Source: a virus (Duplodnaviria; Caudoviricetes). Taken from it: a stretch of 64,000 nucleotides of DNA. A model generated the notes under the pieces. It was not told the origin of the DNA, ran no database searches, and worked only from the letters and a program-made list of their open reading frames with translations. The stretch lies in IMG/VR virus record IMGVR_UViG_3300011116_001229. One strand, given 5' to 3'. The translations under genes and the position numbers were made by a program. Numbering within the stretch: position 1 is the first letter of the stretch; each line of letters starts with the position of its first letter. Below, one piece after another: positions 1 through 59,237 of this stretch.

Positions 1-333
1 GTACCATTTTATATTTGCTTGCATTGCTGCTTCTAACATGTTTGTATTAAACTGAAGCATGGGGCCCATAATGTCAGCAGGTCTTTCAATGCACACTTTT
101 GGCGAGCATTTAATTCCAACTAAATTAAAGACGTAGTCAATATTTTCACATATTTTTTTACATGAATTAAAGTCTCTGAGGTCAACATTGACAAATTCTA
201 CACCTTTTACATCAGGGGCTTGTCTAATGTCGGCAACTCTAATATTTGCTCTCCTCTTTTGTAGAAGGTCAACAAGATGCCTGCCAATCATCCCATTCCC
301 ACCAGTAACTAATACTTTCTTGTTTTCAAACAT
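1..333 (-). CDS. NAD-dependent epimerase/reductase (extended SDR), truncated by window edge
   Basis: Not in ORF track. Read manually from ATG at 333: MFENKKVLVTGGNGMIGRHLV..., Rossmann TGGxGxIG; overlaps the stop of the 326..1507 gene. Confidence 0.85.
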   Translation of the reverse strand, partial: MFENKKVLVTGGNGMIGRHLVDLLQKRRANIRVADIRQAPDVKGVEFVNVDLRDFNSCKKICENIDYVFNLVGIKCSPKVCIERPADIMGPMLQFNTNMLEAAMQANIKWY

Positions 334-1507
334 TATCAATCTCCTGAGAAAATTTAAGACAAATTTTTTCAATATCATCATCATTGACGTCAGAATGATT
401 GCCAATGTAAAGACCGAAATCATGTACATGATTGACTGTTTCCAAATTTCCTACAATTTTGTGAGTAAACTTTTTTAGATATGGTTGACGTGCTTGATTA
501 CCTCCGCCGGCTGTGCCTTTTCTGTATTCAATTCCTTCGCTGTCAAGAATATCACATATCTTTTTAAAAGCATCTTCATTTGGTCTACGCAAAATTAGGG
601 GCAGAGAGAAATTACTACTTCCCAATGTATCAAACTCTGTAATGAATGTTCTAGAGTCAAGCTTGGAAAGCCAACTCATAAGATTATTAGTTCTTTTTTG
701 TATGGTGGAATCTAGGTGCTTTAATTGTTCTAAACCGATTACTGCATTTATCTCTGTGCTCCTCATGTTGAATCCAGGAACTACGAAAGTGAACAGAGGA
801 TTTAGAGATGGATTTTCATTTGAGTATTTCGCTTTATTTTCTTCGTCAAGCTCACGAATCATACCGTGAGATCTGTATAGTTTAGCAAGATCATAAAGCT
901 CTTTATCATTTGTGCAGATCATTCCACCCTCAATTGTAGTCATATGATGACCGAAGTAGAATGAAAAATTTGATATATCACCAAGAGTTCCAACTTTTCT
1001 TTCATTGAATGTTGCGCCATGTGACTCACAGCAATCTTCAATTAACATCAAATTGTATTTTTTTGCAATTTCAATAATTTTATTATTTATGCCATTAAAT
1101 CCTAGCGTATGAACTAAAACTATTGCTTTTGTATTTTCTGTTATTGCCTCTTCAATATTTTCAGCAGTAATTGCTAAATTTTCCATTGAGACGTCAACAA
1201 ACACGGGAGTCATGCCGAGATTTACGACGGCAGCGATATCAGAGACCCAACCAAGAGGAGGTACAATTATCTCGCCTGCACCTTTTACGTCTCGGCAAAT
1301 TGCAGTCATAATGTAGTTTGCGGAAGCGCCCGAGTTAACAAATACGCTATAAGAAACGCCGAGCCACTCGGACCATTTATTCTCAAACTCTTGTACCTTT
1401 TTTCCTTGCGTCAGCCTCACACCAGGCTCAGAAAGAAATTTTATTAAAGCTTTTTTATCACTGTCTGACACGTTGTCATTGATTAGAGGCCATTTGAAGT
1501 TTTGCAT
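326..1507 (-). CDS. DegT/DnrJ-family PLP enzyme, ColD/E1-like sugar 3-dehydratase (His in place of the Schiff-base Lys)
   Basis: IEDCCESHG and SFYFGHHMTTIEGG motifs; His at the catalytic Lys position as in ColD/RfbH; no E1 Fe-S Cys insert seen. Confidence 0.8.
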   Translation of the reverse strand: MQNFKWPLINDNVSDSDKKALIKFLSEPGVRLTQGKKVQEFENKWSEWLGVSYSVFVNSGASANYIMTAICRDVKGAGEIIVPPLGWVSDIAAVVNLGMTPVFVDVSMENLAITAENIEEAITENTKAIVLVHTLGFNGINNKIIEIAKKYNLMLIEDCCESHGATFNERKVGTLGDISNFSFYFGHHMTTIEGGMICTNDKELYDLAKLYRSHGMIRELDEENKAKYSNENPSLNPLFTFVVPGFNMRSTEINAVIGLEQLKHLDSTIQKRTNNLMSWLSKLDSRTFITEFDTLGSSNFSLPLILRRPNEDAFKKICDILDSEGIEYRKGTAGGGNQARQPYLKKFTHKIVGNLETVNHVHDFGLYIGNHSDVNDDDIEKICLKFSQEIDNV

Positions 1508-16200: not shown

Positions 16201-16288
16201 AACCTCTTAATAAGCAGTTAGATAGCTTAATAGCTTTTACTAAGCTAGATAGTTATAGACAAAAATAACTGTTCTTAGAGCTTTGTAT

Positions 16289-16816
16289 ATGGCAAAAAAA
16301 AATGAAGGTTTTAAAGTTTCAAGCCCAAAGTCACAGAGAAGCAAAAAACCTGTTGAAACACAGCAAGTTGTTCTTCAAGACATTCATAAAAAAATTATTA
16401 GCAGCGCTGCTTTAAATGGCGGTTTTGATATTTTGATGTTCAAGATTGAAAAGATCGAACAGAATCAAGAGCAACTTGTAGACAAGCTTGATAAGATTCA
16501 CGACGCGATCTATGACCCCAATGATGGGATTTTCTCAAAGATCAGCGATTCGAATGCAAAAAACTCACAAAAAATAAATGAAACAGAACAGAAAATAATT
16601 GAGATATCTGAGTGGAAAAAGCAGAGAGACAAAGAGGACGAAAGATCAGAGGTCGAGCTTGAAGAGACTGCGGTAAAAGTTCAATCGATACAAAAGAACG
16701 TTGAAGATCTTGTCAAGAATAAAAATACAATTAGCGCTGTCGTAAGATGGATTTTAGTCGCGCTGGCTGGTGGATCTCTAACGCTTTTATTCAAGTGGAT
16801 AGAAACAAAAATTTAG
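16289..16816 (+). CDS. Coiled-coil protein with a C-terminal transmembrane helix (XhlA/holin-like topology)
   Basis: Heptad-rich body; C-terminal VVRWILVALAGGSLTLLFKWI; ATG at 16289 preferred over TTG at 16283. Confidence 0.5.
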   Translation: MAKKNEGFKVSSPKSQRSKKPVETQQVVLQDIHKKIISSAALNGGFDILMFKIEKIEQNQEQLVDKLDKIHDAIYDPNDGIFSKISDSNAKNSQKINETEQKIIEISEWKKQRDKEDERSEVELEETAVKVQSIQKNVEDLVKNKNTISAVVRWILVALAGGSLTLLFKWIETKI

Positions 16817-16851: not shown

Positions 16852-17979
16852 ATGTCTGTTGAGAGTGACATAAATTCAATAAAGAAATTTCTTAATAAAA
16901 ACTCCCAAGTTGAGAAGTCACTAAAATTTGACGATCAAAAATTACGTACGCAGAGAAACCTGCAGCACATTTTTTCTAAACGTTTTTTTGGAAGTAAGCA
17001 AAAGATTTTTGAGATAGTCTTAGATCATGCTGAAAGAGCAGAGAGGTCCTGCCCGCGTGCAGGAATTCTTCTCTTAAAGAAATTTTCTGGTATCGATATC
17101 AATATTGATGAAAGTCCATGCAATAAAAGAACAGTGATCGATCAGATTGAGAAGTTAAATCTTAGCAAATTTTCAACATCTATATTGACAGAAATATTAG
17201 ATTTTTGCAATTCAGAAACAAAAATAAAGCTAACTAAGTCTATTAATCAAAAATCTTATGTAGAAATTTCAAATGATTACCAGTTTAGTGTAACGCCAAT
17301 AGCAGCTGTTAAAAAAAATCTTGACAAAAATTGTAAAGTTTTTGTCATTGATGGATTCATTGAAAGCGTTTCCGAGGTACATCACATACTTCATCATTTC
17401 TCTTCCGAGGAACAGAGCACACCTTTTATTTTATTCTGCAGAGGTGCATCTAACGACGTCATAAGCACTATTAATGTTAACAATACTAGAAATGCTTTCA
17501 GGTGTTATCTTTTTAAGATTGATTTTACAGTTGAAAATGTCAACATTTTAGTCGACTTAGCTGTAGCATGTGGCGTAGATGTCACATCCAGCTTAAAGGG
17601 AGATCTAATCTCTTCTATTAAGCTGGACAAATCTTCTATTGTTGAAAGTATTTCAGTAACTAACACTGGTATCTCTATTAAGAGTAGATCTACGAAAAAG
17701 TCTGTAGCTTTGCATGTTGCTAGCTTGAAGAAGAAACTAACTGACTGCAATGAAATAGAAAAAGAGTTTATACACAAGAGAATGAGAGGTCTTTCATCAA
17801 ATAGCATTGAAATTGCAATTCCAGACGACATAAACTTTTTTTCGAGATCAAAAGAATTAGACGAAGGAATTCGACTGATTTTGTCAATAATGAATAAAAG
17901 TTTTATGCTCGATCAAGCTATTTCTCTGTACTACGAAGTGCTAGAAAAGACTTTAAAAAGTATTGCAGACACAGTCTGA
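16852..17979 (+). CDS. Divergent, truncated GroEL/Cpn60-like protein
   Basis: Apical domain recognisable (VFVIDGFI..PFILFCRG..VDLAVACG..KRMRGLS); GDGTT motif and C-terminal equatorial half absent. Confidence 0.7.
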   Translation: MSVESDINSIKKFLNKNSQVEKSLKFDDQKLRTQRNLQHIFSKRFFGSKQKIFEIVLDHAERAERSCPRAGILLLKKFSGIDINIDESPCNKRTVIDQIEKLNLSKFSTSILTEILDFCNSETKIKLTKSINQKSYVEISNDYQFSVTPIAAVKKNLDKNCKVFVIDGFIESVSEVHHILHHFSSEEQSTPFILFCRGASNDVISTINVNNTRNAFRCYLFKIDFTVENVNILVDLAVACGVDVTSSLKGDLISSIKLDKSSIVESISVTNTGISIKSRSTKKSVALHVASLKKKLTDCNEIEKEFIHKRMRGLSSNSIEIAIPDDINFFSRSKELDEGIRLILSIMNKSFMLDQAISLYYEVLEKTLKSIADTV

Positions 17980-18270: not shown

Positions 18271-18798
18271 GTGGCCAAGAAAAAGTCCTCTGAAGAAGTT
18301 AAAAAAGATTCTAATCTCTCTGTTCAGACCAAACGGGGATTTAGACACTTGATAGAGTGTCGTTGTGTTCTCCCTCAGTTCAAGAATAGAAAAGATCCAC
18401 TTAAACATAAATTCGTTGTTTTTTCAATAGTTGACGAGAACGACGTAGTTGAAGTCAAATATTCTCAGTGCAATAATTGCGGATTGATTCATAAAATAGT
18501 AGACATATGTAAGTCTGAAATTCAACCAGGCAAAGAAAACTCTTCTTCTATTTTGACAATCGATGATATCAAGCTATCATTGCCTAGAGACTTGACGTAT
18601 ATTCTTGAAAAATATCGACTTGAAATCCCATCTTGGGAACAAGCGAGATTTATAGTCGAGAATAAAAGATGGGGAGACTTTATTATTCTCGAGCAAGAAG
18701 ATGACGGGGACACAAAGCAAGGGAAATACGTTAGAATATTAGGAGAGTCTTTCTTTAAAGTGGAAAACTTTTCTAGAGATGAATTTGTTAGCGCATGA
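18271..18798 (+). CDS. Hypothetical Cys/His-rich (putative Zn-binding) protein
   Basis: HLIECRC, QCNNCGLIH, DICKS. Confidence 0.6.
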   Translation: MAKKKSSEEVKKDSNLSVQTKRGFRHLIECRCVLPQFKNRKDPLKHKFVVFSIVDENDVVEVKYSQCNNCGLIHKIVDICKSEIQPGKENSSSILTIDDIKLSLPRDLTYILEKYRLEIPSWEQARFIVENKRWGDFIILEQEDDGDTKQGKYVRILGESFFKVENFSRDEFVSA

Positions 18799-18804
18799 GG
18801 CATA

Positions 18805-19083
18805 ATGGAAAATTCTCTTTACGGTCAGCTGCAGACTGAGAAAATTGCTGAAGACAAAAAAATTGCTTTAGAAATTGTCTCAGAAATCAATAAATTTGGT
18901 ATTAATGACAGACAGCGATGGATGATTCTTCATCTTCTCAGTCTTGAACTTGAAAACATTCAAGACATGAAAGACATGATTGCTTTTATAAAAAGCAAAA
19001 AAGAAAAAGAAATTTTTGTGTCTAAGTTGTATAGTCAAGATGAAGACAATTGGGTCGAGGAAGAAGTAAAACAAAATGGGTAG
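18805..19083 (+). CDS. Hypothetical protein
   Basis: ORF overlapping the clpP start. Confidence 0.55.
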   Translation: MENSLYGQLQTEKIAEDKKIALEIVSEINKFGINDRQRWMILHLLSLELENIQDMKDMIAFIKSKKEKEIFVSKLYSQDEDNWVEEEVKQNG

Positions 19084-19678
19084 ATCTTACGTAGTCAGCA
19101 ATCATAAAGATTCTTCTAGAAGAGGAAACTATGCGTATGAGTCATCAGGAGTACACATACACGTCGGTGATAGTTCTCGACTTGTAGTTCTTCATTGTGA
19201 TGTCAACGAGCAGTCGATATCGACCGTGATGATGCAGATGCTTCATCTGGCTAGCCAGAATCACAAGCCCATACACTTAGTGATATCAACTTATGGAGGA
19301 TCCGTCGATGAGATGTTCACATTGTATGACACTATCAAGTTTCTACCATGCCCAGTTCACACTATAGCACTAGGAAAAGTCATGTCTGCGGGTGTTCTTT
19401 TGTTAGCGTCTGGTGAGAAAGGCACAAGAATGATCGGACGTTCAGCTAGAATTATGATGCACCCTATATCAGGTGGAGCATCTGGCAATATCTTTGAGAT
19501 AATGAATGACGTAGAAGAAAGTAAGCGTCTTCAAGAGCAAATGGCGTCTGCAATCTCCAAAGAGACAAAGTTATCTAAAGAAGAAATTGAAAAGATCATG
19601 AAGCGCGGGCATGACGTCTATTTGTTGCCGCAAGAAGCTATCGAAATGGGAATTGTCGATAAGATTATTGGTGATTAG
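19076..19678 (+). CDS. clpP: ClpP-family protease subunit
   Basis: ISTYGGSV, GKVMSAG (Ser), IMMHP (His), DVYLLPQEAIEMGIVD (Asp). Confidence 0.92.
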   Translation: MGRSYVVSNHKDSSRRGNYAYESSGVHIHVGDSSRLVVLHCDVNEQSISTVMMQMLHLASQNHKPIHLVISTYGGSVDEMFTLYDTIKFLPCPVHTIALGKVMSAGVLLLASGEKGTRMIGRSARIMMHPISGGASGNIFEIMNDVEESKRLQEQMASAISKETKLSKEEIEKIMKRGHDVYLLPQEAIEMGIVDKIIGD

Positions 19679-22283: not shown

Positions 22284-23657
22284 ATGAGAAAAACTTACAT
22301 ACTTGACACAAACGTGCTTCTGAGTGATCCACACTGTTTCAACAACTTTAAAGACAATGACTTGATAATTCCCATGCTTGTCTTAGAAGAACTGGACAGA
22401 CATAAATCTCGTTCAGACGAAGTGGGTCGTAACTGTCGTGAAGTAACTAGAACGCTGGATGAGCTATCTAAAACAAGTTCTTTAAAAGATGGTGTTCAGT
22501 TACCTTCTGGTGGCACTCTCAGAGTCATGACTTCTTCTGAAAAGAAGTCTAAGAAGAGTGATCTTGACTCAACAATTGTTGACAATATGATCATCAACTT
22601 TGCACTGGAGTATTCAAAGAAACACCCTGATAAAGTTTTCTTGGTCTCTAAAGATATCAATGTTAGAATAAAGTGTTCTTCACTGGCTATTCAGGCTCAA
22701 GACTATCTGAGCATGAGAGCATCTGATAGTTTCGACGCTCTATATACGGGCGTAAAAGTTTTAACTGCACCCAACGATGTAATTAATAGGTTCTATGGTG
22801 GAGATGAGGTAAACATCAAAGAAATTACATCTGATGTAACGTATCCCAATCAGCTGTTTGTTCTTAAGTCCTCTGACTCTACGATGGCCTCTGCACTTTG
22901 TAGATCGAGCCAGAATGGTCAACTATTACAGCTACAAAAATTCGATAATGTCTTTGGTATAAAACCTAGGAATAAAGAACAGAATTTTTCTTTTGACCTT
23001 CTGATGAATCCTGCAGTTAAACTGTTGACCCTTACAGGTAGAGCAGGCTGCGGTAAGACACTATTGGCGTTAGCAGCAGGTTTAGCACAGCTAGACTCTA
23101 TTGGTTCACATCCAACTTATCAGAAGCTAATTGTGTCTAGACCTATTCACCCTGTGGGTAAAGACATAGGATTCTTGCCAGGCACGCTGGCCGAGAAGAT
23201 GGAACCGTGGGTAGCACCTGTCAGAGATAATCTCGAGTATCTTCTTAATGCTACTTCTAATAAAAAGTTAACAAGAACAAGAAGCAAGAAGCCAGAAGAT
23301 TCTCAGAATCTCTTTAATGACCCGTATCTTGAGCTGATGCAACAAAAAGGTCTCATTGAGATTGAAGCGATAACTTACATCAGAGGTAGATCTATTCCAA
23401 ATGCATTCATTATCATTGATGAAGCACAGAATTTAACTACTCACGAATTAAAGACAATCATCACTCGAGCCGGCGAAGGAACTAAGATAGTTCTGACCGG
23501 AGATCTCGAGCAGATTGATAATGTTCATGTTGACTCATTTACGAACGGTCTGACACATGCTATTGAGAAGTTTAAAGACTATGACATTTCAGGCCACGTT
23601 ACTCTTCTAAAGGGAGAGAGAAGTGAATTAGCAACTTTGGCTTCAAAGATTTTATAA
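22284..23657 (+). CDS. phoH: PIN-PhoH protein (PhoH2/YlaK type)
   Basis: ILDTNVLL PIN, GRAGCGKT, IGFLPG, YIRGRSI, IIDEAQN, GDLEQID, RSELA. Confidence 0.93.
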   Translation: MRKTYILDTNVLLSDPHCFNNFKDNDLIIPMLVLEELDRHKSRSDEVGRNCREVTRTLDELSKTSSLKDGVQLPSGGTLRVMTSSEKKSKKSDLDSTIVDNMIINFALEYSKKHPDKVFLVSKDINVRIKCSSLAIQAQDYLSMRASDSFDALYTGVKVLTAPNDVINRFYGGDEVNIKEITSDVTYPNQLFVLKSSDSTMASALCRSSQNGQLLQLQKFDNVFGIKPRNKEQNFSFDLLMNPAVKLLTLTGRAGCGKTLLALAAGLAQLDSIGSHPTYQKLIVSRPIHPVGKDIGFLPGTLAEKMEPWVAPVRDNLEYLLNATSNKKLTRTRSKKPEDSQNLFNDPYLELMQQKGLIEIEAITYIRGRSIPNAFIIIDEAQNLTTHELKTIITRAGEGTKIVLTGDLEQIDNVHVDSFTNGLTHAIEKFKDYDISGHVTLLKGERSELATLASKIL

Positions 23658-23710: not shown

Positions 23711-25240
23711 ATGGGAATACTCGATAGTAAGTCTAGAATTATGGATGTCATTTTGACTTCTGAGGGCAGAAGGCAGATGGCGGAAGGTACATTTAGAGTA
23801 TCATTCGCAACTTTTTCAGATAGAGAAGTTGGTTACAAGGCTGATGATACAGATGGGCACATAGACCCAGTTGGTAAAATTTACTTAGAAGCATGCAACT
23901 TACCGCAAGATCAGATCATATTTGAAGCCAATGATGACGGCAATATTATCTCTTTTAGAGATGATAGAATTACTTTTGATAAACTTGACTCAATTCCACT
24001 GTTGCCAAAACCATTAGAAATTTTCTTTTCTCAAGGTAAAGCTACTGCCTATCAATTAAATTTTGGTCCGCGAGTACAGGTTAGAAAGCCAGGAATAGAC
24101 CCAGCAATAACAGGTTCTGTATTAGGTAAATTTGTTTCTGACGGAATGGGTGTAGGCTTTTCTGTTATTGATAGCTTTGGAAGCAAAGCAAATTTTATAC
24201 TAGATCCGAGTAAATTTGTTGGAACTGTTTCATCATCCTACAAGAGTGCAACTATAACAAGTAGCTCTTATTATATCGGAGTCAAGGGCGGTCTTAACGC
24301 AAGAGATTTGACTACTCTAGTACAGGCAACAATTTTATCTGCATCTATTGTTCAGCCAACTTATCCAGGTGGAAGATCTCCTGGGCCCCACGTTGAGCCA
24401 GTTGATAGAGACAATAACATTTATATAACTGATCTAAGTGGAAGTCACGACAAAGTTGTTATAAGCTTGCTAACAGGGTCGGGAAATTATGTGATTAATA
24501 CAGACACAGAAATACACCCGTTTGTAATTGAAGATGCTTTTCTTGGTGGAAGAAAAGATGTTGTAGAGCTTCCTAATGCAGATTTTGCATCACAAATACA
24601 GGGAATTCTTACATCATCATTTGACAATTTTTCAGAGCTAGGAATGATATCAACAATCGATCCTATCTTCTTAGAAGAAAGCTTTCAAATTTTTCCTGAA
24701 GAAATTAGTTTTGATATTAATCAACTCACGAACAAGCAGCTGATTGAGCAAAAACCGACCCTTAATTCAGTCGATTCTTTATTTTCTGATGATAAACTCT
24801 CTAATACCCTTAATTTCAAGTATCTTCCTCCAATAGTCAAGACTAGTGACGCAGTTTTAACAAATAAAACAGACTCAACATTAACAACTCAATATCAGCT
24901 AGCTAACTTTAAACCTCTTGGCTCAAATCTTAAGCCATTAAGTTATTCACAACTAATCGATGAAATAAAACAGTCTGGCGGATTTGCTATTCAAAGAAAA
25001 ATTAATTTTGAAAAAACTACTAGAAGCAATAACCTTCTTTGTCAGCTATTTGAAGTTTCAAAAGGCTCTGTCCAAAAACTTGACATTATTGACCATGGAT
25101 TTATTCAACAAGAACCGGGATCTATTTTGCAAAAAAGAGTTTATTTTGTTGGCAAAGTATTTTTAGACGACAGAGGCACTGCCTGTTTTTTAAACATCTT
25201 TACTCTAATTTTCTCACAAGATGCAGGAGAGGAAGATTAG
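23711..25240 (+). CDS. Putative virion structural protein
   Basis: N-terminus (MGILDSKSRIMDVILTSEGRRQM...FSD.EV.Y) paralogous to 34417 ORF. Confidence 0.5.
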   Translation: MGILDSKSRIMDVILTSEGRRQMAEGTFRVSFATFSDREVGYKADDTDGHIDPVGKIYLEACNLPQDQIIFEANDDGNIISFRDDRITFDKLDSIPLLPKPLEIFFSQGKATAYQLNFGPRVQVRKPGIDPAITGSVLGKFVSDGMGVGFSVIDSFGSKANFILDPSKFVGTVSSSYKSATITSSSYYIGVKGGLNARDLTTLVQATILSASIVQPTYPGGRSPGPHVEPVDRDNNIYITDLSGSHDKVVISLLTGSGNYVINTDTEIHPFVIEDAFLGGRKDVVELPNADFASQIQGILTSSFDNFSELGMISTIDPIFLEESFQIFPEEISFDINQLTNKQLIEQKPTLNSVDSLFSDDKLSNTLNFKYLPPIVKTSDAVLTNKTDSTLTTQYQLANFKPLGSNLKPLSYSQLIDEIKQSGGFAIQRKINFEKTTRSNNLLCQLFEVSKGSVQKLDIIDHGFIQQEPGSILQKRVYFVGKVFLDDRGTACFLNIFTLIFSQDAGEED

Positions 25241-27737
25241 TATGCCAATTAAATTAGATTTAGCAAATAGAATACCTGAGTCAGCACTAATAATTGATTC
25301 AAGCTTAGTTGGCGAAGTAATTGATGTTGATCCACAGTATGTTACTTTAAAAGTCTATTTTTCTGTTAGACTCAATGATAAGTCATATAATCCGCTTTTA
25401 TATAAAAAAGTCAATATATCAATTTTAACTGATGCTCAAAGAAATTCTTTGACCACACCTTTTAAAAATAATAATTTTGAAGATAATAATTCTTTTATTA
25501 AAAAGAATATTCTTGGAAAGAATACAGTTGCACAAATTGGCACAGATGAGTCAAAATTGTCCCAAGACTTAAGCTTCAATAAAAGATTTTTATCTAATGA
25601 AAACATATCGCTAGAGTCTCAAATTAAATATAATAAGTACAGAACCATAGTTCAGTCTGTAAAAAATACCATAGGTGATAATTCAACAATAACATCACAG
25701 ACAGTTTATATAGATCAAAAAGTAGTCTCTGCTTTAAAAACAGCTGTTGATTTTACTGACATTATTCTCCCAGACTTTATTAATATTTCTCAAGATAAAA
25801 GTCTATTAACTGAACGTGTTTCAAATTCTCCAGATCTTAAAATTTTTCAAGATATAGTCAATTCAAAGACTACTATTAGCAAGCTTATTAGTAAATCAAC
25901 ACAGACTGCTGTAGATGATACACAAAATTTAAATGAAAAGCTGATAATTGACTACCTAATACATAGCGCAAATAAGCTTGACAGAAGAAATTTAAGCAAT
26001 TTAAATTACTATACAAAGCAAAGATCTAGAAAATTTCTTAATAAGCTAGATTTATCTACTGAGTTTAAATTAAGAAGATCATACACTAATAAAAGCTTGA
26101 CTCTTAAATTTGATCTTTTCTCCAAAGATTCTCCTGACAATCCTGGTCTAACTAGACTAATAAATCTTGACTTTACTAGATTTTTTGATGTCTACTATAA
26201 GTCTATTAAATCTATCAATATCGACTGTACATCAAGACAATTAAATGCTTTAGTTAATGAAAATACATTAAGTTTTTCTTGCCAACAAGAAGATGAAAAG
26301 AAAATATTAAGTTATAATCTTTACGTCAAAAATTTATTGAGTCAAGACAATAGTAAATTTTCATTTCTTACAAGCTTAGAAAAGAATAGTTCTTATGTTT
26401 CTCAGCAAGCTAATGACTCTTATTCGCTTTGCTACAGAGTTAAACCTGTCACTTATTTTGGTGAGTCTTATGTTTTTTCTGACTGTGTTGTTAAATCAGT
26501 CAAAGGTGAAAAAACATTGTTTGAAGCAGATAATTTTACGTTCTTTAATGTTCGACAAATTTCATCAAACAGTGTTGAGTTAGAAATCTCATATGATAAC
26601 GAAAATATTTCAAACCAAATTAGAAAGATAAAAATCTACAAGAGAAACTGTACTCTTTCTTCAGACGCACCATTTGGTATTTTTTCTATAGAATATTTGT
26701 CTGATTCATCTTCATCAAAACAAGTTTTAAATGATGAAAATATCTTAGTCAATAATTTTTACGAGTATTACGTCGAATTAATTGATCAATACGAAAATGT
26801 AATAAAATCTTCAGAACCAAAGTTGATAAACGTCAGATTTATTAACGATCCAGCTTCTTTTTCTGTCAGCGTATCAAACGTGTCTATAACTCCTGATACT
26901 GTTCTGTTTTCAATCCAGACTGATATACAAAAATTAGATACATCTGCAAACTTATTAAAACAGCAACTAGATAAATTAAGAATAAATGTGACCCCCACTC
27001 AAGAAGTTTCCTCTAATCCAAACGATTATCCTATAACTGCTTATCATAAAATCACTAGAATAGACACAGTGACAAATAAGAGAGAAACTTTCAGCCTAGT
27101 AACTGATGGAACATTTGAAGACAGCCCCGAGACAAGAAAAAGAATGTCAATTTCAGACCCAATAACTGGTAGAAGCTACAAGTACATGATTGAGTCTTTT
27201 AAAAGAGACCCAATTACTATTACTAAAGACTTTTTAGTAGTTGGTAATACAAATATAGAAAATAAAACGTGGTTCTATAGACCTTCTAAATGGATGCATC
27301 CACGAGTCTTAAATACAGGAACATTGCTTGAAGAGAATGAAAATTCTTTTAATGAGTCTCATGAAGAAACTTTCATGTCAGATTTTATTGGAACTTTTAT
27401 GGTAAATGACATTAATTTCTCGATCAATAGAAGAGATCTTCAAATTTCAAATGTCGCTGCTACAAGAGCTTCATTGACAAACATAAAAATTTCATGGAAT
27501 TTGATGCAAAATTTAATTGATCAATTTGATAGCTTTATTGTGTGCAAAGTTGTCAATGGCAAAAAAAGCATTCTTGGTATTACTTCTGATCCTTATTTAT
27601 ATCATGCTTTAGATAATGAAGAAGATTTAGGTACGCTGTTTTATGAAGTAACTCCTGTCAGCAATGACTATGTTATTCTACAGACGCATATGAGCAATCC
27701 TTTGATAATAACTCAAAATCTTGAAGGAAAATTTTAG
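25221..27737 (+). CDS. Large hypothetical, probably virion protein with beta-sandwich (FN3-like) repeats
   Basis: Recurrent Y-x-Y-x-V/I patterns (LCYRVKPV, YEYYVELI, YKYMIES, LFYEVTPV). Confidence 0.45.
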   Translation: MQERKISMPIKLDLANRIPESALIIDSSLVGEVIDVDPQYVTLKVYFSVRLNDKSYNPLLYKKVNISILTDAQRNSLTTPFKNNNFEDNNSFIKKNILGKNTVAQIGTDESKLSQDLSFNKRFLSNENISLESQIKYNKYRTIVQSVKNTIGDNSTITSQTVYIDQKVVSALKTAVDFTDIILPDFINISQDKSLLTERVSNSPDLKIFQDIVNSKTTISKLISKSTQTAVDDTQNLNEKLIIDYLIHSANKLDRRNLSNLNYYTKQRSRKFLNKLDLSTEFKLRRSYTNKSLTLKFDLFSKDSPDNPGLTRLINLDFTRFFDVYYKSIKSINIDCTSRQLNALVNENTLSFSCQQEDEKKILSYNLYVKNLLSQDNSKFSFLTSLEKNSSYVSQQANDSYSLCYRVKPVTYFGESYVFSDCVVKSVKGEKTLFEADNFTFFNVRQISSNSVELEISYDNENISNQIRKIKIYKRNCTLSSDAPFGIFSIEYLSDSSSSKQVLNDENILVNNFYEYYVELIDQYENVIKSSEPKLINVRFINDPASFSVSVSNVSITPDTVLFSIQTDIQKLDTSANLLKQQLDKLRINVTPTQEVSSNPNDYPITAYHKITRIDTVTNKRETFSLVTDGTFEDSPETRKRMSISDPITGRSYKYMIESFKRDPITITKDFLVVGNTNIENKTWFYRPSKWMHPRVLNTGTLLEENENSFNESHEETFMSDFIGTFMVNDINFSINRRDLQISNVAATRASLTNIKISWNLMQNLIDQFDSFIVCKVVNGKKSILGITSDPYLYHALDNEEDLGTLFYEVTPVSNDYVILQTHMSNPLIITQNLEGKF

Positions 27738-27742
27738 AGAAT

Positions 27743-30700
27743 ATGGGAAAGAGAGCGACAGTAAAATCAGCAGTTACGACTAGAGGCTATAATTCTGGCG
27801 ATGGAGGCTTTTCTCAAATATTTTCATTTAACACCACGGTTGCTTCTCAAGTTGCAAGTAGTATTGATACCAAAGTCTCAGATCAGTTAAGCGGCATTCA
27901 ATTTGAGTTTAAGTCTGGACAGGGTTCAAATCCGCCCGTAGTTAATTCTGAGTCGATTAATTATTCACAAATAACTTCTGCATTAGTAAATTCAGACTTA
28001 TTAACAAACTCTACGACATCAAAAATTCTTGATCCAAATGATAAGCTTATAAATAAAAATTCTAGTCAATATAACCCTTGGGCCACAAAATCAACAAATA
28101 AGTCTAGAATTTATACGGCGCTTACTGCTATACCCTCCGACGAGCCATTGATCATAAGCTCAATAGAAGTATTGCCAGTTAGTGATACAAACTTTACTTT
28201 AAAACTTTTAGACTTTGGCGGATCTGACTTCGAAGGTATTGGAGTCGATACTTCATATGACAGAGACTTCTCTTTAATTCTTAAAAAAGAATGTGAAGAT
28301 CTCATCTTGTCGACGGCACAAAATACATTCTTAAAAAATAAATCTCATTCAGCAAAAACAGCAGGAAAAATTTTAGATAGTAAAAATAAATTTTCTGAAT
28401 TATCTGTTACACAAGCTAAAGGATCTTCATTGATCTTGCAAAATCTTGTAGATGTTATCAGCGTATTAAATCCTCAAAAAGTTCTTGATGAGTCTCAAGA
28501 CTATCCTAAAGGTTTCTCTAATATTTTTACACAAGAAAAATGTGTTTTATCTTCACCTTTTATCAACACTACGTCTTTTAATAGCCTTCTTTCAATCATA
28601 AAGAAAGAAATTTATACACATTCTCTTGCAACAGATCTAACATCAATACTTTTGCCGGAAGCTAAACTATCGCTTAATGAAAGCATAAGAACCAATAGTC
28701 TATCTTTTAAAATTTTAAATCAAACAGACTCTTTTCCTGAACAATTAGTTCTCCCTGGTGGTGCAAATAAAATAATTCAAAATTATTTTGACAAACATTT
28801 CGTCTTAAATAGACAAAAAACCTTTCAGACAGACGTCTCACTAGCAGATATTGCAGCTATCGGTTTAGTCAATGCTCGTCATATTGGCGGATTAAGCGAT
28901 ATTTTAGTTACAAATGGCTCGGGTAACATAGGCATTAAAAAATCATTTTCTGGTATTCCGCAGTTTAATAATGGTATTGACAATATTTTAAGAAATTTAA
29001 CAGTCAATTCATTTAAGTCAAGTGTAGGCGGCGACCTATTGGTACCACACGCTGGAATTGACTTCACAAAATATTTTGGTCTATTATCTTTTCTTCTTTT
29101 TAAAGAAATACTATTCTCTTCATCTTGTAGAAATACACCAATAAGAAATTATCTTTCTAAAAATTTTGGTGGTTATCTTCCTACAATAACTCAAGATTCA
29201 ACTGCAGCTAATTATGACATATGGAATGTTCTTATTGGAGAACTAACTAGAGAAGTAACTGATTTTACGAATGAAGATGCTTTATTGACAAATAACGCAA
29301 CTTCAGCTCCTTCACTAGCAAGATTTACTAAACAAGTTATCAATGCCGATAGTAGTCAGCTAAGTGATCCATCGACAGAAAATGTCTATCGAATTCTTAC
29401 AATAGAAGAGACAAACTTAGATTTTGGTGCAGGAGAAACATTAACCCCAGGCGCACTTTACTATATTGACTCAGCATTAACAGGACAAGCAAATTCTCAG
29501 GGAGACATTCTTCCTGATACTGCTAAAGCTAGTCAGCTACTAACAAAAATTCAAGATGCAAGAAAGTCTATTAACGCAATTAAGTACTTGCACAGAGCTA
29601 AAATAGAAGAAGAAGATTCTACTTTATTTCAGCTGCAGCAATTAAGCGAGTATAGAGAATCTATTACCAGAGCCTATAGAGAAATTGCCACATCCGATCT
29701 AGTTAAATTTTATGAGTCAAAGATAAAAATAGTAGCACAATCATCTAAAAACTTTTCAGAGATTCCTGAAGATCAAAAAACTAAAGAAATTTACAATACT
29801 AGCGTAGCTGCAATCGGCAAAAATGGTTTTGTAAGCAGAGTTCTTGCATCACTTATTTCTAGGGCATGGTCTTTAATTTACGACTCATCATACCTTGATG
29901 TCAAGAAAAAGTCTGTGGGTGAGAATTTACTAAAAGCTATCTTTTCAATTGTTTTAAGAAGAATGTATCATATTGGTATGGGAGAAGACGGCAAAACTAA
30001 TCATGGTGCGATTTCAAGTAATGGATTTGAAAAATTTAAACCAAAATTTAAGATAGAAGTTGCCAATCTTGGGCTCGGAGAAATTCAATTTGTTACACCT
30101 AATTTTTCAAATGCATCTCCTGAGTTAAAGAAAGAGTTTTCTCATTCAAATAGAGGTCTATTTTTTCAAACTCTAATTGACACAACTGGTAACGCTATTA
30201 GCCCAGCCATGGCAATAGATGCCATAATTTTTTCAAATCCTGAAATCTTTAAAGTTTTTAAAGATAAAGCTGAAGCGTCTTCTGCAACATTTTGGGACTT
30301 AGAGACTAGAAAAACGCCCAAGGTAAGTTTTACTTCTCAGACCCCGCTTCTTAAGAATGCAGCTGCAAACTCTCTTTTGCTAAAAGGAGAAAGCTATTTT
30401 CACAATTTAGTCGTTTACAGCGATTTAAATGGTACAAATGGCCTCGGAAAGAAAAATTTTCTTCTCGATAAAATTGCCGAGCTCTTATCAAAATTTCACT
30501 TAGCTGTTAAGGATAGATCTCCATTTAGAACCGCGGGGGCAGATAATTCTAATCTTCTTGCAGGACGTGTCACTACGTGTTATGGTGATATTGATGCCTC
30601 TGTGATGCTTTGGAATTATTTTTTATTAATAGTTGATGCTATAAGAAGAGTTACTCCTGAGTCTCTAATAGGTGTTCTTGATTTTTCTACTTATGACTCA

Positions 30701-32380
30701 AAGGATGATATCAATACCGTTAGTTACGTAACTGAATTTGGTTATAATCTTGGAATTGATCAAAGCTTTAAATATATAAATGAAACCGACAGTCCTAACG
30801 AAACTAAAGGATCTTATAGTTTTTGGAATACTAAACTAAACTACAGAGACACAATCGATCCTGTAATTAATTCTTTTATTGAACAGCAAAAAGTTTGCTC
30901 AGACCATTTTTCTAGACTTACACTTTACCTTTCTGTGCTTGAAAATCGAGTTTCAAACTTTATTAACTTCTTAAAGTCACCAATTGCAGATGTGAAAAAA
31001 TACTATAATGAATTAAATTCAGCTGCAAACTCAGAAGTATCTTCATTGCCGGACGATGCTTCACGTAGCTCGTTAAAAAGATTTCTTGTTTCTAGCGGCT
31101 TTGCACAAGAACAACTTTTGCTGTCAAGAAATATAGGAGATGAAATTAAAAGAAGGACAGATCTAGATCTAAATTCGTTCTATAGTGCTGTAGTCAATTT
31201 AAAACCAGGATTTTACAGCGAGAAAGGATCTCTGTTTCAGACACAGGAGTTCACCATTTCCGATAAGCCAGCTGTGATTGGAATCTCTGAATTTATTTCT
31301 CTCAATGCTACAGACCAGTTTGCTTATAATCCACTGGTAAGACAATTCTTCATAAAGAACGACAAATTCACCAGTATCAATACTAACAATAGAAGAATTT
31401 TGTCTATTGGAATACCGCCAAGAATGGTGAGAAATTTAAATAAAACACCTGCTTTGCAAACAAGTCTAAATTATTCGAGTTCAGTTCTTAAGAATTTAAT
31501 TAAGATTAAAGTTTATAAGAACGACGTTTTGAACACACCCGGTATCTACTATAAACCAAAGACGTTTGTTTTTGACATGTACCGATTTCCAACAAGAGAT
31601 CTTGCTCTCTATAAAGAAGTTGATATTAATGGAAGTCTTGACGACTTGATTGCGTCTATTCCAACAAAAGTACATATTCCTAATAGCTTTTTAGATCAAA
31701 CTATTATAAAGCAGCAAATTACTGAAAATGGTCTCTTTGCAAGAAATTATGCTGTTTCAGAATATTCTGCTGTCGTAGGAAAGAATACAGCAATTGATTT
31801 TAAAAGCTTATACAATAATCACGTTGAGAGCTTTTTACTAGAAGAATATGTAAATATGTTTACTCGGGCGAGGCTAGATGAATCTTACTATTATCATTAT
31901 GTCAACCTAGACGCAACAATGAAGAATATGGAATCGCAGTTTAATAACTACCTGTCGACAACTAACCTACAATTTAATGAGTCAAATCTACCAGATGACT
32001 TTTTACAGTCTGTTCCAGCTAATGAAAGACTTAGAGTTGTTAAGCAGTCTGAAGAGACCATAAAGAGATATTTTATGAATGAAACATTTTTCATGTCATC
32101 TGACGAAATTAGAAAGCGCATATTCTTACCTAAAAAATTTGATAGAGTCTTTACAGTTGCAGTTGATTCCGATGAGTTTGAAATTGATCAAACTCAGTTT
32201 GATGATACAAAACAGCAAGAGCTGGCAGAAAAATACATCAGTGAAGGTAAGTTAGTTGCAGATGAAAATGGAATAGTTAAAAAATCTTCAGATATTACTT
32301 TACCTAGTGAAATTTACGTTGATGAATATTGGGTAGAAATAGAACCAGCACTAGAATCAGAATTGCCAGGGTTGACCTAA
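27743..32380 (+). CDS. Very large hypothetical protein (1545 aa), probably virion-associated
   Basis: Uninterrupted ORF in the structural block; no recognised motif. Confidence 0.5.
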   Translation: MGKRATVKSAVTTRGYNSGDGGFSQIFSFNTTVASQVASSIDTKVSDQLSGIQFEFKSGQGSNPPVVNSESINYSQITSALVNSDLLTNSTTSKILDPNDKLINKNSSQYNPWATKSTNKSRIYTALTAIPSDEPLIISSIEVLPVSDTNFTLKLLDFGGSDFEGIGVDTSYDRDFSLILKKECEDLILSTAQNTFLKNKSHSAKTAGKILDSKNKFSELSVTQAKGSSLILQNLVDVISVLNPQKVLDESQDYPKGFSNIFTQEKCVLSSPFINTTSFNSLLSIIKKEIYTHSLATDLTSILLPEAKLSLNESIRTNSLSFKILNQTDSFPEQLVLPGGANKIIQNYFDKHFVLNRQKTFQTDVSLADIAAIGLVNARHIGGLSDILVTNGSGNIGIKKSFSGIPQFNNGIDNILRNLTVNSFKSSVGGDLLVPHAGIDFTKYFGLLSFLLFKEILFSSSCRNTPIRNYLSKNFGGYLPTITQDSTAANYDIWNVLIGELTREVTDFTNEDALLTNNATSAPSLARFTKQVINADSSQLSDPSTENVYRILTIEETNLDFGAGETLTPGALYYIDSALTGQANSQGDILPDTAKASQLLTKIQDARKSINAIKYLHRAKIEEEDSTLFQLQQLSEYRESITRAYREIATSDLVKFYESKIKIVAQSSKNFSEIPEDQKTKEIYNTSVAAIGKNGFVSRVLASLISRAWSLIYDSSYLDVKKKSVGENLLKAIFSIVLRRMYHIGMGEDGKTNHGAISSNGFEKFKPKFKIEVANLGLGEIQFVTPNFSNASPELKKEFSHSNRGLFFQTLIDTTGNAISPAMAIDAIIFSNPEIFKVFKDKAEASSATFWDLETRKTPKVSFTSQTPLLKNAAANSLLLKGESYFHNLVVYSDLNGTNGLGKKNFLLDKIAELLSKFHLAVKDRSPFRTAGADNSNLLAGRVTTCYGDIDASVMLWNYFLLIVDAIRRVTPESLIGVLDFSTYDSKDDINTVSYVTEFGYNLGIDQSFKYINETDSPNETKGSYSFWNTKLNYRDTIDPVINSFIEQQKVCSDHFSRLTLYLSVLENRVSNFINFLKSPIADVKKYYNELNSAANSEVSSLPDDASRSSLKRFLVSSGFAQEQLLLSRNIGDEIKRRTDLDLNSFYSAVVNLKPGFYSEKGSLFQTQEFTISDKPAVIGISEFISLNATDQFAYNPLVRQFFIKNDKFTSINTNNRRILSIGIPPRMVRNLNKTPALQTSLNYSSSVLKNLIKIKVYKNDVLNTPGIYYKPKTFVFDMYRFPTRDLALYKEVDINGSLDDLIASIPTKVHIPNSFLDQTIIKQQITENGLFARNYAVSEYSAVVGKNTAIDFKSLYNNHVESFLLEEYVNMFTRARLDESYYYHYVNLDATMKNMESQFNNYLSTTNLQFNESNLPDDFLQSVPANERLRVVKQSEETIKRYFMNETFFMSSDEIRKRIFLPKKFDRVFTVAVDSDEFEIDQTQFDDTKQQELAEKYISEGKLVADENGIVKKSSDITLPSEIYVDEYWVEIEPALESELPGLT

Positions 32381-32384
32381 AATT

Positions 32385-34337
32385 ATGACCACATCAAAGG
32401 TATCAAAATCTTCATACGTAGTTAATGTTCCTGAAGTTTTACAACTTTCGGGAGACTTTGTCTATAATTTTTATACTAAGAATGAGAGAGTTTCAGCCAC
32501 AAATGGTCTTAATGCAAATTTAGCACCAAGATATGTTTCTCTTTCTTGGGTGGCACCGCCTAAATATGAGAATTATCAGTATGTCGTAGGAAAAGAAACA
32601 ACAAATCAGCTTCTAGAAAAATTAGTAACCGAAGATAGCTCATTTTCTTCTAACTACTTATCTAGAAATTTTTCTGAAGTTACCGATGTTAAGCAGGCTG
32701 CTTTGCAATTAAAAAACTATTATGGTTTTTCCGACTTTTTTTATTTTAACAGCTTGCTAGATAAAAAACAAAAAATTATTAAAGACTTTATTGAGTCTAA
32801 TGCAAGTTTGAACCCACAAGAAAGATCAAGACTTGAGCAAAACTTAAAACATCTTCATGATGCTTATGATGCATTAACAGATTTGCCTTCACAGACTTTA
32901 GGCTTGGATGTAGTTGATGCAGAAGGTAATGTAATTGATAAGCAAAATTTATTTAAAACTTTAACATCTTCTCTTTCACTCAATGTTAAACTACATAAGT
33001 ACGTAATTCAAGATCTTCTATCAAATGCTGAGATATCAAAAATAGAGCTTGACAAATTTGCTAATTACAAGATAAATGTAAATAATAGCGACGATATTGT
33101 TCTACAAGCTTCAGAGATAAAAGTGGGTGAAAATTCTACGCCAAGGCTTAAGGGCTTTCTGATTAGAAGATATCGATATGGACAAGATGGAAATCTAACA
33201 GAAGAGCTTGTCAAATATCTTAATAATCCACAAGCAACTTCTTTTAACGATTCTGGGGTTGTTTATGGTGGCAATTATGTTTATGCTGTTAGCGTTGTTG
33301 CAGAAATAGATATTTTAGCAAATAAGATAGGTAGCAATAATAATCCATCTGGTACTGACACTTTAACAATAAATATTGAGTCTCGCCTGTCTCTTTTCAA
33401 TATTTCATGCTTTGAGTTTAAGCCTCCACCTCCTCCTACTGATATTAAATTTTACTTTGATTATATTAAAAGAAATGTTGCTATGACTTGGGACTTCCCG
33501 GTCAACCCGCAGTCAGACATAAGGCAATTTCAAGTTTTTAGAAGAAAATCTTTTGATCACCCATTTGAACTAATCGCTCAGTATGGTTTTGATCGATCTC
33601 TTACGGACTACATAACAGCGCCTATTTTGACTTCTGAATTTGAAGGATCTCTTAATTTTGAAGGTATGCCATATTCACCGAATGATGCTTCTCAGATAAG
33701 TAACAAAAAATATACGACTGGTGAAAGAGTTGATGCTAACAATATTGAAAATATGGATCCATCATTAAGATATCTAGTCAAGGACTCTGATCTACCCGTT
33801 TATAAGCATGTTGACGAAGACTTTGTTGTCGATAATGAATTTTTTGAGTCAACTTCATACATTTATGCTATGTGTGCTATTGATGCACACGGAATGATAT
33901 CTAACTACTCTTCTCAGTACAGAATAACTTATGACTTCTTTAAAAATAGCCTAATTACTGAGATGGTTTGTGACGAAGGTAGTCCTAGAACTTATCCAAA
34001 TATGAATCTACGTTCGGATACATTCAAAGATTCAATCAATACTACTGGAATGAAACTAAAAAACTTAGAGATCTATTTCACACCGGAGTATTTTAATGTC
34101 TTAGATGAACAAGGAACTGAGTTTAATGTTGTCTCAATACAAAAACCAAATTCTCAGACTGATGATGAGAAGCCGTTTTACCAATTCCAGATGATTAATC
34201 TAGACAATAGTAAAACACAAGTGCTTAGAATAAATATAGAACAACCGCCGCCACCACCTCAAGATACAATTACAATAATTCAAGATGTTCCTCCTGAAAT
34301 AGAGCCTCCTGACATCTGGCAAGACCTTGTAACATGA
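32385..34337 (+). CDS. Putative virion protein with FN3-like domains
   Basis: YVYAVSVV, PPPPTDIKF..MTWDFP..QFQVFRR, YIYAMCAIDAHG. Confidence 0.5.
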   Translation: MTTSKVSKSSYVVNVPEVLQLSGDFVYNFYTKNERVSATNGLNANLAPRYVSLSWVAPPKYENYQYVVGKETTNQLLEKLVTEDSSFSSNYLSRNFSEVTDVKQAALQLKNYYGFSDFFYFNSLLDKKQKIIKDFIESNASLNPQERSRLEQNLKHLHDAYDALTDLPSQTLGLDVVDAEGNVIDKQNLFKTLTSSLSLNVKLHKYVIQDLLSNAEISKIELDKFANYKINVNNSDDIVLQASEIKVGENSTPRLKGFLIRRYRYGQDGNLTEELVKYLNNPQATSFNDSGVVYGGNYVYAVSVVAEIDILANKIGSNNNPSGTDTLTINIESRLSLFNISCFEFKPPPPPTDIKFYFDYIKRNVAMTWDFPVNPQSDIRQFQVFRRKSFDHPFELIAQYGFDRSLTDYITAPILTSEFEGSLNFEGMPYSPNDASQISNKKYTTGERVDANNIENMDPSLRYLVKDSDLPVYKHVDEDFVVDNEFFESTSYIYAMCAIDAHGMISNYSSQYRITYDFFKNSLITEMVCDEGSPRTYPNMNLRSDTFKDSINTTGMKLKNLEIYFTPEYFNVLDEQGTEFNVVSIQKPNSQTDDEKPFYQFQMINLDNSKTQVLRINIEQPPPPPQDTITIIQDVPPEIEPPDIWQDLVT

Positions 34338-44000: not shown

Positions 44001-44234
44001 GTTGCGCTTGTTAACGTTTCTTCTATGTCGAAATGTGACATGTTTATCATAGATGAAGGATTTGGCACTCTAGACGACGCTGGAGTCGAGGCATGCAATA
44101 GATTGCTGACAAGCCTAAAAAAGTACTTTAGACTTGTTCTTGTCATAACGCACGTTGATGGAATTAAGGATGTTGCCGACCACATCTTAGAAATAACAAA
44201 AAATGAAAAAGACTCGAGGGTTGTCTACGCATGA
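41076..44234 (+). CDS. Fused Mre11/SbcD (gp47) - Rad50/SbcC (gp46) nuclease-ATPase
   Basis: ADIH, GGDIFH, GNHD, GDIH phosphoesterase motifs, then GANRIGKS, coiled coil, CSGME, IIDEGFGTLD, ITH in one frame. Confidence 0.92.
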   Translation: MVKLAHTADIHWRGLSRHDEYREVFTAFVEDCKKNKVDHIFVGGDIFHTKTTGISPEYIDQLTWWLESMAKVAPVHLTLGNHDGNLTNLSRQDAVSPIVQAINNPRIHLYKKSGIYEFEPGFNLCVYSLFDEEGWDNVKPEPGKINLACYHGPVQGSVTESGWEIDESQIKVDFFKDYPFVLLGDIHQLQYLGYRDDQEGNKKPWIAYPGTPLQQNYAEELDHGYLVWNIESISKWNVSFRKLPNPKPFVTLNWTGSQKDFLKEAQNYPKQSRFRIKSSNALSQDDVSFFSDTLKSQYDATEVTFKSEYKAESETIKAGSATIAKSDLSSPEVILSLIQTYAKENGVTDYNCDTLTSQVKKYLSIVSSSDDLSRGSKWTLKHMKWHNTFAYGEDNEIDFSKLNGIIGVFGANRIGKSSIVGTLMYNLFNTTDRGSIKNLHVCNIRKPYCYARSIFEHNGNVYVAERQTSKSVNKKGITSATTSLNFFKMQDDGELEDLCGDLRTDTEKVIRSLIGTHEDFSITSLSAQGDINAFISQGSTKRRSFLSRFLGLDVFDKMADLANKDLNGFKAQLKNFPDRNWDELKKQCSDAVSEIKHQLDELEVLNAHRQSEISDLKADLSTHKDVKVVTQTDVLNQEKRVSTLLKSCDDCTSKIDNLTSEIQILKSKLEVVEQVENSDDVEDLKQQLTNICELERSLSDLKHLHDKETTQLKQYQKSLKILDEVPCGDEYPTCKFIKDAHQSKEKLSDQVHKSDDALKRMNEISVKLSAMNKENLVSRLDKLEKAITLSAKFKLEISKKETEIAASRASCDSIADTLRDAEQKLKDLQTALKNEENTEVVSIRSKIEVLTKQIKESDELRLSLATQRGKLLSDIDKLNNEKFSRDAILKDMKTYEIISGAFSKKGIPLIITRSQIPAINAEIAKILHGIVDFEVELENDDDSDASEIYINYGDSRRIIELCSGMEKTIASIALRVALVNVSSMSKCDMFIIDEGFGTLDDAGVEACNRLLTSLKKYFRLVLVITHVDGIKDVADHILEITKNEKDSRVVYA

Positions 44235-46874: not shown

Positions 46875-46949
46875 TATTGAATTATTGACAGAAACAGTTT
46901 AATATATCCCGCAAGGTGAAACGCCGACTTCGTATTGAGGAGGCATAAT

Positions 46950-55731: not shown

Positions 55732-55784
55732 TGTGAACTTTTAACAACAAACCAACTTTAGATTTTTTTAGGAGTCAATTTAAA

Positions 55785-57641: not shown

Positions 57642-57679
57642 CATGAATATCATCTGAATTCATATCCTAAGATCTGCAG

Positions 57680-57709
57680 AGGCCACCCAAAAGGTGGCCT
57701 TTGTAGTTT
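57680..57709 (+). terminator. Intrinsic terminator after MCP
   Basis: AGGCCACC-caaaa-GGTGGCCT perfect 8-bp stem followed by a T-rich tract. Confidence 0.8.
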
Positions 57710-57743
57710 ATAAACATTCAGTTGATGTATATATAATAGTTAT

Positions 57744-58571: not shown

Positions 58572-58725
58572 ATCAGCGCGTCCCTTGTGTTTTACGAAAT
58601 TCGTTGATCGTCTATAATATTTGCTCATTTTTGACTACGAACTTCATATTTAAATTCGCGTCGGAGCGCTGATCAGCAAAACAAACCGGCGCAAGAACAT
58701 TCACAGAAATTATTAGGAGCTCAAA

Positions 58726-59157: not shown

Positions 59158-59181
59158 TTCTAGAAACTGCCAATAAACAGC

Positions 59182-59217
59182 AAAGAGGTTCTCAGCGATG
59201 GGAACCTTTTTCTTTTT
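59182..59217 (+). terminator. Intrinsic terminator
   Basis: aaagaggttctca-GCGA-tgggaaccttttt hairpin followed by a T-run. Confidence 0.8.
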
Positions 59218-59237
59218 GCTCCCATAGTTATTCAGTC

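Follow-up and report, generated by a model that had tools for sequence, protein, structure and literature searches.

A reduced, ATP-site-less GroEL paralogue conserved in a large clade of uncultured jumbo phages

An uninterrupted open reading frame at positions 16852–17979 on the plus strand of the window, as we refer to the whole 64-kb stretch of DNA analysed here, encodes a 375-aa protein (stop codon at 17977–17979) that is almost certainly a reduced homologue of GroEL devoid of the ATP site, as judged from profile comparisons, the AF2 model, Foldseek and VIA-align. The protein is a GroEL-derived pseudo-ATPase that keeps the apical and intermediate domains of group I chaperonins, and its gene is a core gene under strong constraint in a large clade of uncultured jumbo phages. 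What is new here is that a canonical full-length Cpn60 is encoded alongside the ATP-less form in all seven genomes of this group that are at least 74% complete.

Sequence identity between the 375-aa protein and group I GroEL/Cpn60 is about 11%, and searches with the single sequence yielded nothing significant in either Pfam, where PF00118 (Cpn60_TCP1) was not reached, or PHROGs. Significant sequence homology to Cpn60, as expected of group I chaperonins, was found with a profile built from 49 members of the family, which matched full-length GroELs from the PDB (E = 4e-23) over GroEL positions ~116–426, and with hhalign against E. coli GroEL (from NC_000913), which aligned residues 103–353 with GroEL 153–413 at a probability of 98.4%. 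Furthermore, phmmer comparison of the single sequence with PDB sequences retrieved isolated Cpn60 apical domains (5cdj, E = 7e-9, residues 159–315). An earlier note on this DNA had aligned the protein by eye with the apical and intermediate domains of GroEL; all four blocks of that alignment were recovered by hhalign, and phmmer and the family profile concur. Given these matches and those at the structural level, the homology is real and well above chance.

The single-chain AF2 model of the protein (pLDDT 90.7, pTM 0.74) retrieved exclusively chaperonins in a Foldseek search (E ~1e-18, with a value of 2e-18 for GroEL), and VIA-align superposed 365 of the 375 residues onto 5opx_A with a Z score of 23.2 and an rmsd of 3.8 Å, residues 1..375 covering GroEL 11..521. 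The predicted protomer displays the three-domain chaperonin fold, including the equatorial, intermediate and apical domains, the equatorial one being reduced to a remnant. The apical domain superposes on 5cdj_B with a Z score of 22.5 and an rmsd of 1.9 Å over 173 aligned residues. The model is much closer to GroES/nucleotide-bound protomers (TM 0.67–0.70, rmsd 3.8–5 Å) than to the apo form (TM 0.47–0.48, rmsd ~10–11 Å). Because the nucleotide pocket is gone, the protomer may be fixed in this raised conformation resembling the nucleotide/GroES-bound state. It is conceivable, albeit a long shot, that such subunits, permanently in the 'ATP-state', form an ATP-free ring or cap that replaces GroES for the full-length Cpn60 of the phage; if pseudo-GroEL does serve as such a co-factor, it would form part of a two-component, GroES-less chaperonin system and represent a new class of co-chaperonins produced by stepwise reduction of GroEL.

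The domain organization of the protein, all parts of which are encoded on the plus strand, could be delineated from the alignments and the model. Residues 1–85 (16852..17106) are a miniaturized N-terminal equatorial remnant corresponding to GroEL ~15–102 (MAFFT map, motif table and DSSP), which includes a stem-loop-like hairpin and a degenerate GDGTTT region reading S-C-P-R-A-G at residues 66–71. The first intermediate-domain segment (residues 86–141; 17107..17274; GroEL ~134–190), assigned with the profile, hhalign and the residue map, follows directly upon the deletion of GroEL 103–133. The apical domain (residues 142–316; 17275..17799; GroEL ~191–374), defined by the 5cdj_B match and the conservation, is the most conserved part of the protein. 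It is followed by the second intermediate segment (residues 317–353; 17800..17910; GroEL ~375–413; hhalign and family alignments), with the invariant D337 and R341, and by a single C-terminal helix (residues 354–375; 17911..17976) equivalent to GroEL ~500–521 according to DSSP, VIA-align and the map. In the MAFFT residue map, positions 2–85 of the window protein correspond to GroEL 15–102, positions 86–353 to GroEL 134–413, with a small gap at 200–206, and positions 354–375 to GroEL 500–521; the N-terminal part of this map is a low-identity alignment that is supported by the structural range of 1..375 to 11..521.

Accordingly, GroEL ~103–133, ~414–499 and the C-terminal tail (522–548) are missing from the 375-aa protein, and about 40% of the equatorial domain is lost. 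The same holds for the short forms in general, in which the occupancy is 0.00–0.07 at GroEL positions 421–490 and approaches zero at 531–548, and the inter-ring segment (GroEL ~434–464) and C-terminal tail characteristic of group I chaperonins are both lacking. The deleted segment 414–499 includes part of the nucleotide pocket and the inter-ring contacts of GroEL. The protein had been described as half-length, but its actual size is about two-thirds that of GroEL. The proposed loss of most of the C-terminal equatorial domain stands as far as GroEL ~414–499 and the tail are concerned, but the deletion is internal and the last equatorial helix is kept. The protein ends 35 residues after L-D-E-G-I (336–340), close to the distance of about 30 residues from the VEDAL-equivalent suggested previously. 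A simple C-terminal truncation was considered separately and is ruled out by the internal deletions and the retained final helix, both evident from the structure and the residue map.

For the nucleotide site, we aligned E. coli GroEL with five full-length phage Cpn60s and 35 short or intermediate members of the family. The TLGP, KDG, GDGTTT, ISAN, EDAL, GGG, NAA/DAS and D-P motifs are kept in all five full-length phage proteins, whereas they are missing from each of the 35 short or intermediate ones. At the level of individual residues, the window protein and the 34 other members have none of those involved in nucleotide binding and hydrolysis (T30–P33, K51–D52, D87–T91, D398, G414–G415, N479–A481 and D495), each of which is either absent or deleted. 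Every nucleotide-site motif is thus absent from the 375-aa protein, in line with the lack of an ATP site that the earlier note had read from the sequence. Its equation of the GDGTTT loop with SCPRAG was right about the region, which aligns with S-C-P-R-A-G-I-L, but the register was off by approximately two residues. The position of the catalytic D398 is variable across the short forms; the invariant D337 aligns with the adjacent GroEL E397, and the invariant R341 with GroEL H401. Judging from these residues, the 375-aa protein is predicted to be a form that cannot bind ATP in the canonical mode.

In canonical GroEL, the equatorial ATPase domain is the most conserved part of the protein. The conservation pattern in the present family is inverted, with apical conservation exceeding the equatorial one: of the 33 columns with at least 90% conservation, 28 fall within the apical domain, conservation peaks at residues 166–180 (strand and helix H), 196–210 (helix I) and 226–255, and it is lowest in the equatorial remnant and the C-terminal helix. 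In the family alignments, the strand and helix H (residues 166–185; 17347..17406, plus strand) carry the family motif I-D-G-x-I-E-S-V-S-E-I-H-H-L-L, whereas helix I (residues 200–214; 17449..17493, plus strand) contains T206, N210 and R213, the counterparts of GroEL T261, N265 and R268. Among the 35 members, the equivalents of T261 and N265 are present without exception and that of R268 in 32, and the V264 position is occupied by Val or Ile in 27. In GroEL, V264, N265 and R268 are reported to contact substrates or peptides (PMC10723157). The groove positions L237, V264 and, mostly, L259 are likewise retained. By contrast, GroEL L234 of helix H is replaced by a conserved His (H177), V263 by Lys, Ala or Asn and Y199 by residues that are either small or polar, and most members have a deletion at F204. 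A conserved groove that preserves the backbone-binding residues but has a more polar lining suggests that a specific partner is bound through an extended segment, as opposed to promiscuous clients captured by hydrophobic contacts. The ATP-independent holdase envisaged in the earlier note would be compatible with the conserved helix H/I groove; nevertheless, holdase activity of the classical, promiscuous kind appears doubtful, because several of the hydrophobic residues lining the groove have given way to polar ones or disappeared.

The family is extensive. An exhaustive profile search yielded at least 770 clusters (50% identity) at E ≤ 1e-30, the best 150 of which all comprise proteins of 281–434 aa, and a homologue search returned 149 relatives, nearly all of 365–420 aa. 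All family clusters are viral or metagenomic (100% viral members in the case of the Atlas clusters) and are labelled 'hypothetical protein', although a few JGI records label members 'chaperonin GroEL'; thus, a large set of hypothetical proteins gains a name. A tblastn search of 50,697 cultured or deposited phage records with the 375-aa protein and with the downstream orf175 product produced no match, so that there is no isolate to serve as a model, and a scan of 185,579 prokaryote species genomes with one peptide pattern did not turn up any member. For ten pairs of orthologues, the dN/dS values are 0.09–0.18; the value for the window and locus L002 is 0.10, with dS near saturation. These observations bear on whether the gene is a decaying, functionless remnant of a full-length phage GroEL, to which the loss of all ATP motifs and the large deletions could point. 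The concern that the homologues are full-length and that this copy is decaying is dispelled by the at least 770 short clusters and a dN/dS of ~0.1. Intact open reading frames of stable length, purifying dN/dS values, invariant apical residues and a confident, compact predicted fold refute decay, to which we give virtually no credence.

More distant loci encode ATP-less forms of 450–503 aa. In the maximum-likelihood tree, all ATP-less forms constitute a single clade (SH-aLRT 100), separated from canonical GroELs by a branch of ~4 substitutions per site. With canonical GroELs as the outgroup, the earliest branches are those of the 450–503-aa forms, among which the ~400-aa forms are nested (support 81), and the 370–383-aa class, to which the window protein belongs, forms a derived subclade (support 99). 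The attachment of the ATP-less clade to the phage full-length Cpn60s has a support of only 81–83, on that same long branch, and the tree program issued warnings on long branches and compositional bias. A 467-aa member yielded an AF2 model (pLDDT 85.9) with N- and C-terminal strands, the stem-loop and more of the equatorial helices, which aligns with GroEL 2..525 over 453 residues (Z 26.9) without any ATP motif. The basal position of the longer ATP-less forms indicates that the reduction was stepwise: loss of the ATPase site seems to have preceded the trimming of the equatorial domain.

The five large records that were tested first (298–369 kb, 81–100% complete, two with terminal repeats) all encode a separate full-length Cpn60 of 535–580 aa. 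With ten more records, a full-length Cpn60 was found in every one of the seven that are at least 74% complete (270–370 kb), whereas the records without it are all fragments, at most 61% complete. No full-length Cpn60 is encoded within the 64-kb window, but one is present in a complete genome from the same subclade (L015/G004). The ATP motifs of the phage full-length Cpn60s are intact, and these proteins, a well-conserved family, share 47–51% identity with GroELs from many bacterial phyla, none of which stands out as the donor. Since the complete genomes of the clade have their own canonical full-length Cpn60, the suggestion that the short form hijacks the host GroEL loses weight.

Co-occurrence with Cpn60 would also fit a non-catalytic subunit that enters a mixed ring with the full-length protein or forms a heptameric single ring of its own through the retained intra-ring elements, tuning cavity size, allostery or client range. 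In favour of this, the protein still has the stem-loop-like hairpin and the last equatorial helix, the basal 467-aa form keeps both terminal strands and aligns with GroEL almost end to end, and the part that was deleted (GroEL 414–499) is the inter-ring region. However, the equatorial remnant is less conserved than one would expect of a conserved subunit interface, the two genes lie more than 100 kb apart in the complete genomes compared (G001 and G004), and the paralogues are extremely diverged, at ~4 substitutions per site; we therefore consider a ring subunit unlikely.

As to the co-chaperonin, no GroES gene is present in the window or in the flanks of the 80 related loci, in agreement with the absence of an adjacent GroES noted before. 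In four genomes that are at least 91% complete and carry ATP-less forms of ~370–424 aa, no Cpn10/GroES was detected with PF00166 or phrog_3188, the latter even at E ≤ 1. A Cpn10 is encoded in one record only (G005, 320 kb; loci L087 and L082), ~8 kb from the full-length Cpn60, and the ATP-less paralogue in this genome is a basal 497-aa form. The four genomes might need the host GroES, which brings up a modulator or decoy of the host chaperonin: a GroES-accepting protomer that would bind the mobile loops of host GroES, or host GroEL itself, and either sequester the co-chaperonin or redirect it to the phage Cpn60. Although the predicted conformation is like the GroES-bound state and the helix-I residues that hydrogen-bond bound peptides are invariant, His in place of L234 and polar residues in place of V263 alter hydrophobic positions that accommodate the GroES loop, the phage has its own Cpn60, phage gp31-like co-chaperonins are possible, and the genome with the 497-aa form has its own Cpn10 too. 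On balance, targeting of the host system appears distinctly unlikely.

The genes for the large terminase, portal with an HNH insertion, major head protein, SbcCD-like fusion, ClpP, PIN-PhoH and a DinG/XPD-like helicase identify the window as phage DNA. The nearest cultured relatives by TerL, Flavobacterium phage immuto and Microcystis phage Mel-JY01, share only 41–43% identity. The 1048-aa portal protein (46935–50081, plus strand) matches phrog_213 at residues 461–858 and contains an HNH endonuclease domain at residues ~173–290, which may have arisen by fusion or by insertion of a homing-type element. A 1052-aa protein (41076–44234, plus strand) combines SbcD-like (residues 1–360) and SbcC-like (residues 255–1051) regions, that is, a fused gp47/gp46-type nuclease. 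The G+C content is 0.49–0.55 at 54000–60000, around the major head protein gene (55785–57641), compared to 0.31–0.42 in the 52 kb upstream. No match at all was obtained in Pfam or PHROGs for three consecutive large open reading frames at 25221–34337 (plus strand; 838, 1545 and 650 aa).

The short GroEL gene sits in a non-structural module with the genes for ClpP, the helicase and PIN-PhoH, not next to the head genes. Across 80 IMG/VR loci, the gene order is conserved: a GT gene on the minus strand, up177, short GroEL, small variable open reading frames, orf175 (80/80), orf92 (72), ClpP (64), helicase (72) and PhoH (71). Upstream, the 177-aa product of up177 (16283..16816, plus strand; syntenic in 52 of the 80 loci) has no Pfam match and, as read from its translation, an apparent coiled-coil and a hydrophobic C-terminal segment. 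Downstream, orf175 (18271..18798, plus strand) encodes a Cys/His-rich, Zn-ribbon-like protein (CxC...CxxC...H) with a mean column identity of 59%, to which profile searches against the PDB, Pfam and the Atlas gave no assignment; in the other loci, the gap between short GroEL and orf175 holds nothing but small variable open reading frames. The ClpP-family protease is encoded at 19076..19678 (plus strand; Pfam CLP_protease, E = 4e-40), and a 457-aa fusion of a PIN domain with a PhoH-like ATPase at 22284–23657 (plus strand).

This fixed neighbourhood, above all the invariable presence of orf175 and the frequent presence of ClpP, raises the prospect of a scaffold exapted for a role unrelated to folding, namely, an interaction platform for ClpP, which is 7-fold like GroEL rings, for orf175 or for the apparently membrane-anchored up177. 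The lack of an ATPase and the conserved polar groove residues, which suggest one dedicated ligand, would fit such a platform. Yet the whole region is syntenic in the clade, possibly by plain inheritance of the gene order, so that adjacency is a weak argument, and the short gene stays in the 16 of the 80 neighbourhoods from which ClpP is gone. We regard this exaptation as rather unlikely.

Given that the gene is paired with that of canonical Cpn60 in complete genomes, the most economical reading is that the short protein is an ATP-independent binding module that acts as a holder or adaptor in cooperation with the full-length chaperonin of the phage itself. We put this forward tentatively, as a possibility to which we give appreciable weight without deeming it probable, for the co-occurrence comes from seven near-complete genomes and the short gene is located beside neither the full-length Cpn60 gene nor the head genes. 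Under such cooperation, the groove between apical helices H and I would capture an extended segment of a specific phage protein, for instance, a virion protein or an assembly factor, which would be held or presented, and the full-length chaperonin would supply the ATP-driven folding step. Client release would have to take place outside the GroEL cycle, which it cannot follow because there is no ATP.

GroEL is among the best-studied molecular machines, yet few clients and co-factors of phage chaperonins have been identified. The short proteins might be a new accessory factor for the latter. More generally, the family amounts to a natural experiment in which the chaperonin fold persists without ATP and with strong selection on the apical domain, across hundreds of phage lineages, side by side with a normal GroEL in the seven most complete related genomes. 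In addition, structural biology and protein engineering gain minimal, evolution-tested GroEL scaffolds that are 375, ~400 and ~460 aa long.

Compared to group I GroEL/Cpn60 (PF00118), the 375-aa protein has the same apical and intermediate domains, the same protomer topology and the T261, N265, R268 and V264 contacts. It differs in lacking TLGP, KDG, GDGTTT, GGG, NAA and D495, in the non-conservation of D398 and in the absence of GroEL ~103–133, ~414–499 and the C-terminal tail. By its sequence features, it should not be filed as a working member of this chaperonin class, given that the nucleotide site, inter-ring segment, tail and encoded co-chaperonin are all lacking, and neither should it be classed with the phage chaperonins of the gp146 type. 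Duplicated chaperonin folds are employed in accessory or adaptor roles in mycobacterial Cpn60.1/GroEL1, BBS proteins and the CCT-like domain of PIKfyve, all of which are cellular and mostly full-length or fused to other domains. To our knowledge, none of them combines a phage-wide distribution with the absence of ATP motifs and internal deletions in the equatorial domain, and we imply no specific relationship. Our literature search, incomplete in its coverage such that an earlier mention is possible, found no description of an ATP-less GroEL family of this kind: full-length GroEL only was analysed by Marine et al. (2017), and Iyer et al. (2021), in their survey of jumbo phages, mention nothing of this sort beyond ATP-dependent HSP60 and HSP10.

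Among phage chaperonins, OBP gp246 and AR9 gp228 are full-length and ATP-driven. The characterized phage chaperonins, phiEL gp146 included, are such machines (PMC7185714). Like the 375-aa protein, they are GroEL homologues of jumbo phages without an adjacent GroES, and the structures of gp146 match our model (6tmu_E, Z 20.7). However, proteins of the gp146 type are ATP-dependent and ~550 aa long, whereas the present one has 375 aa, no ATP motifs and, in related genomes, the standing of a second paralogue beside a full-length gene. In its apical part, it resembles the engineered GroEL minichaperones (191–345 or 191–376), which are ATP-independent by construction and superpose at an rmsd of ~2–2.5 Å (1kid, 1fy9 and 3vz6). 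Unlike these isolated apical domains, the phage protein has ~200 additional residues, with both intermediate segments and a mini equatorial domain, and a groove that is partly polar.
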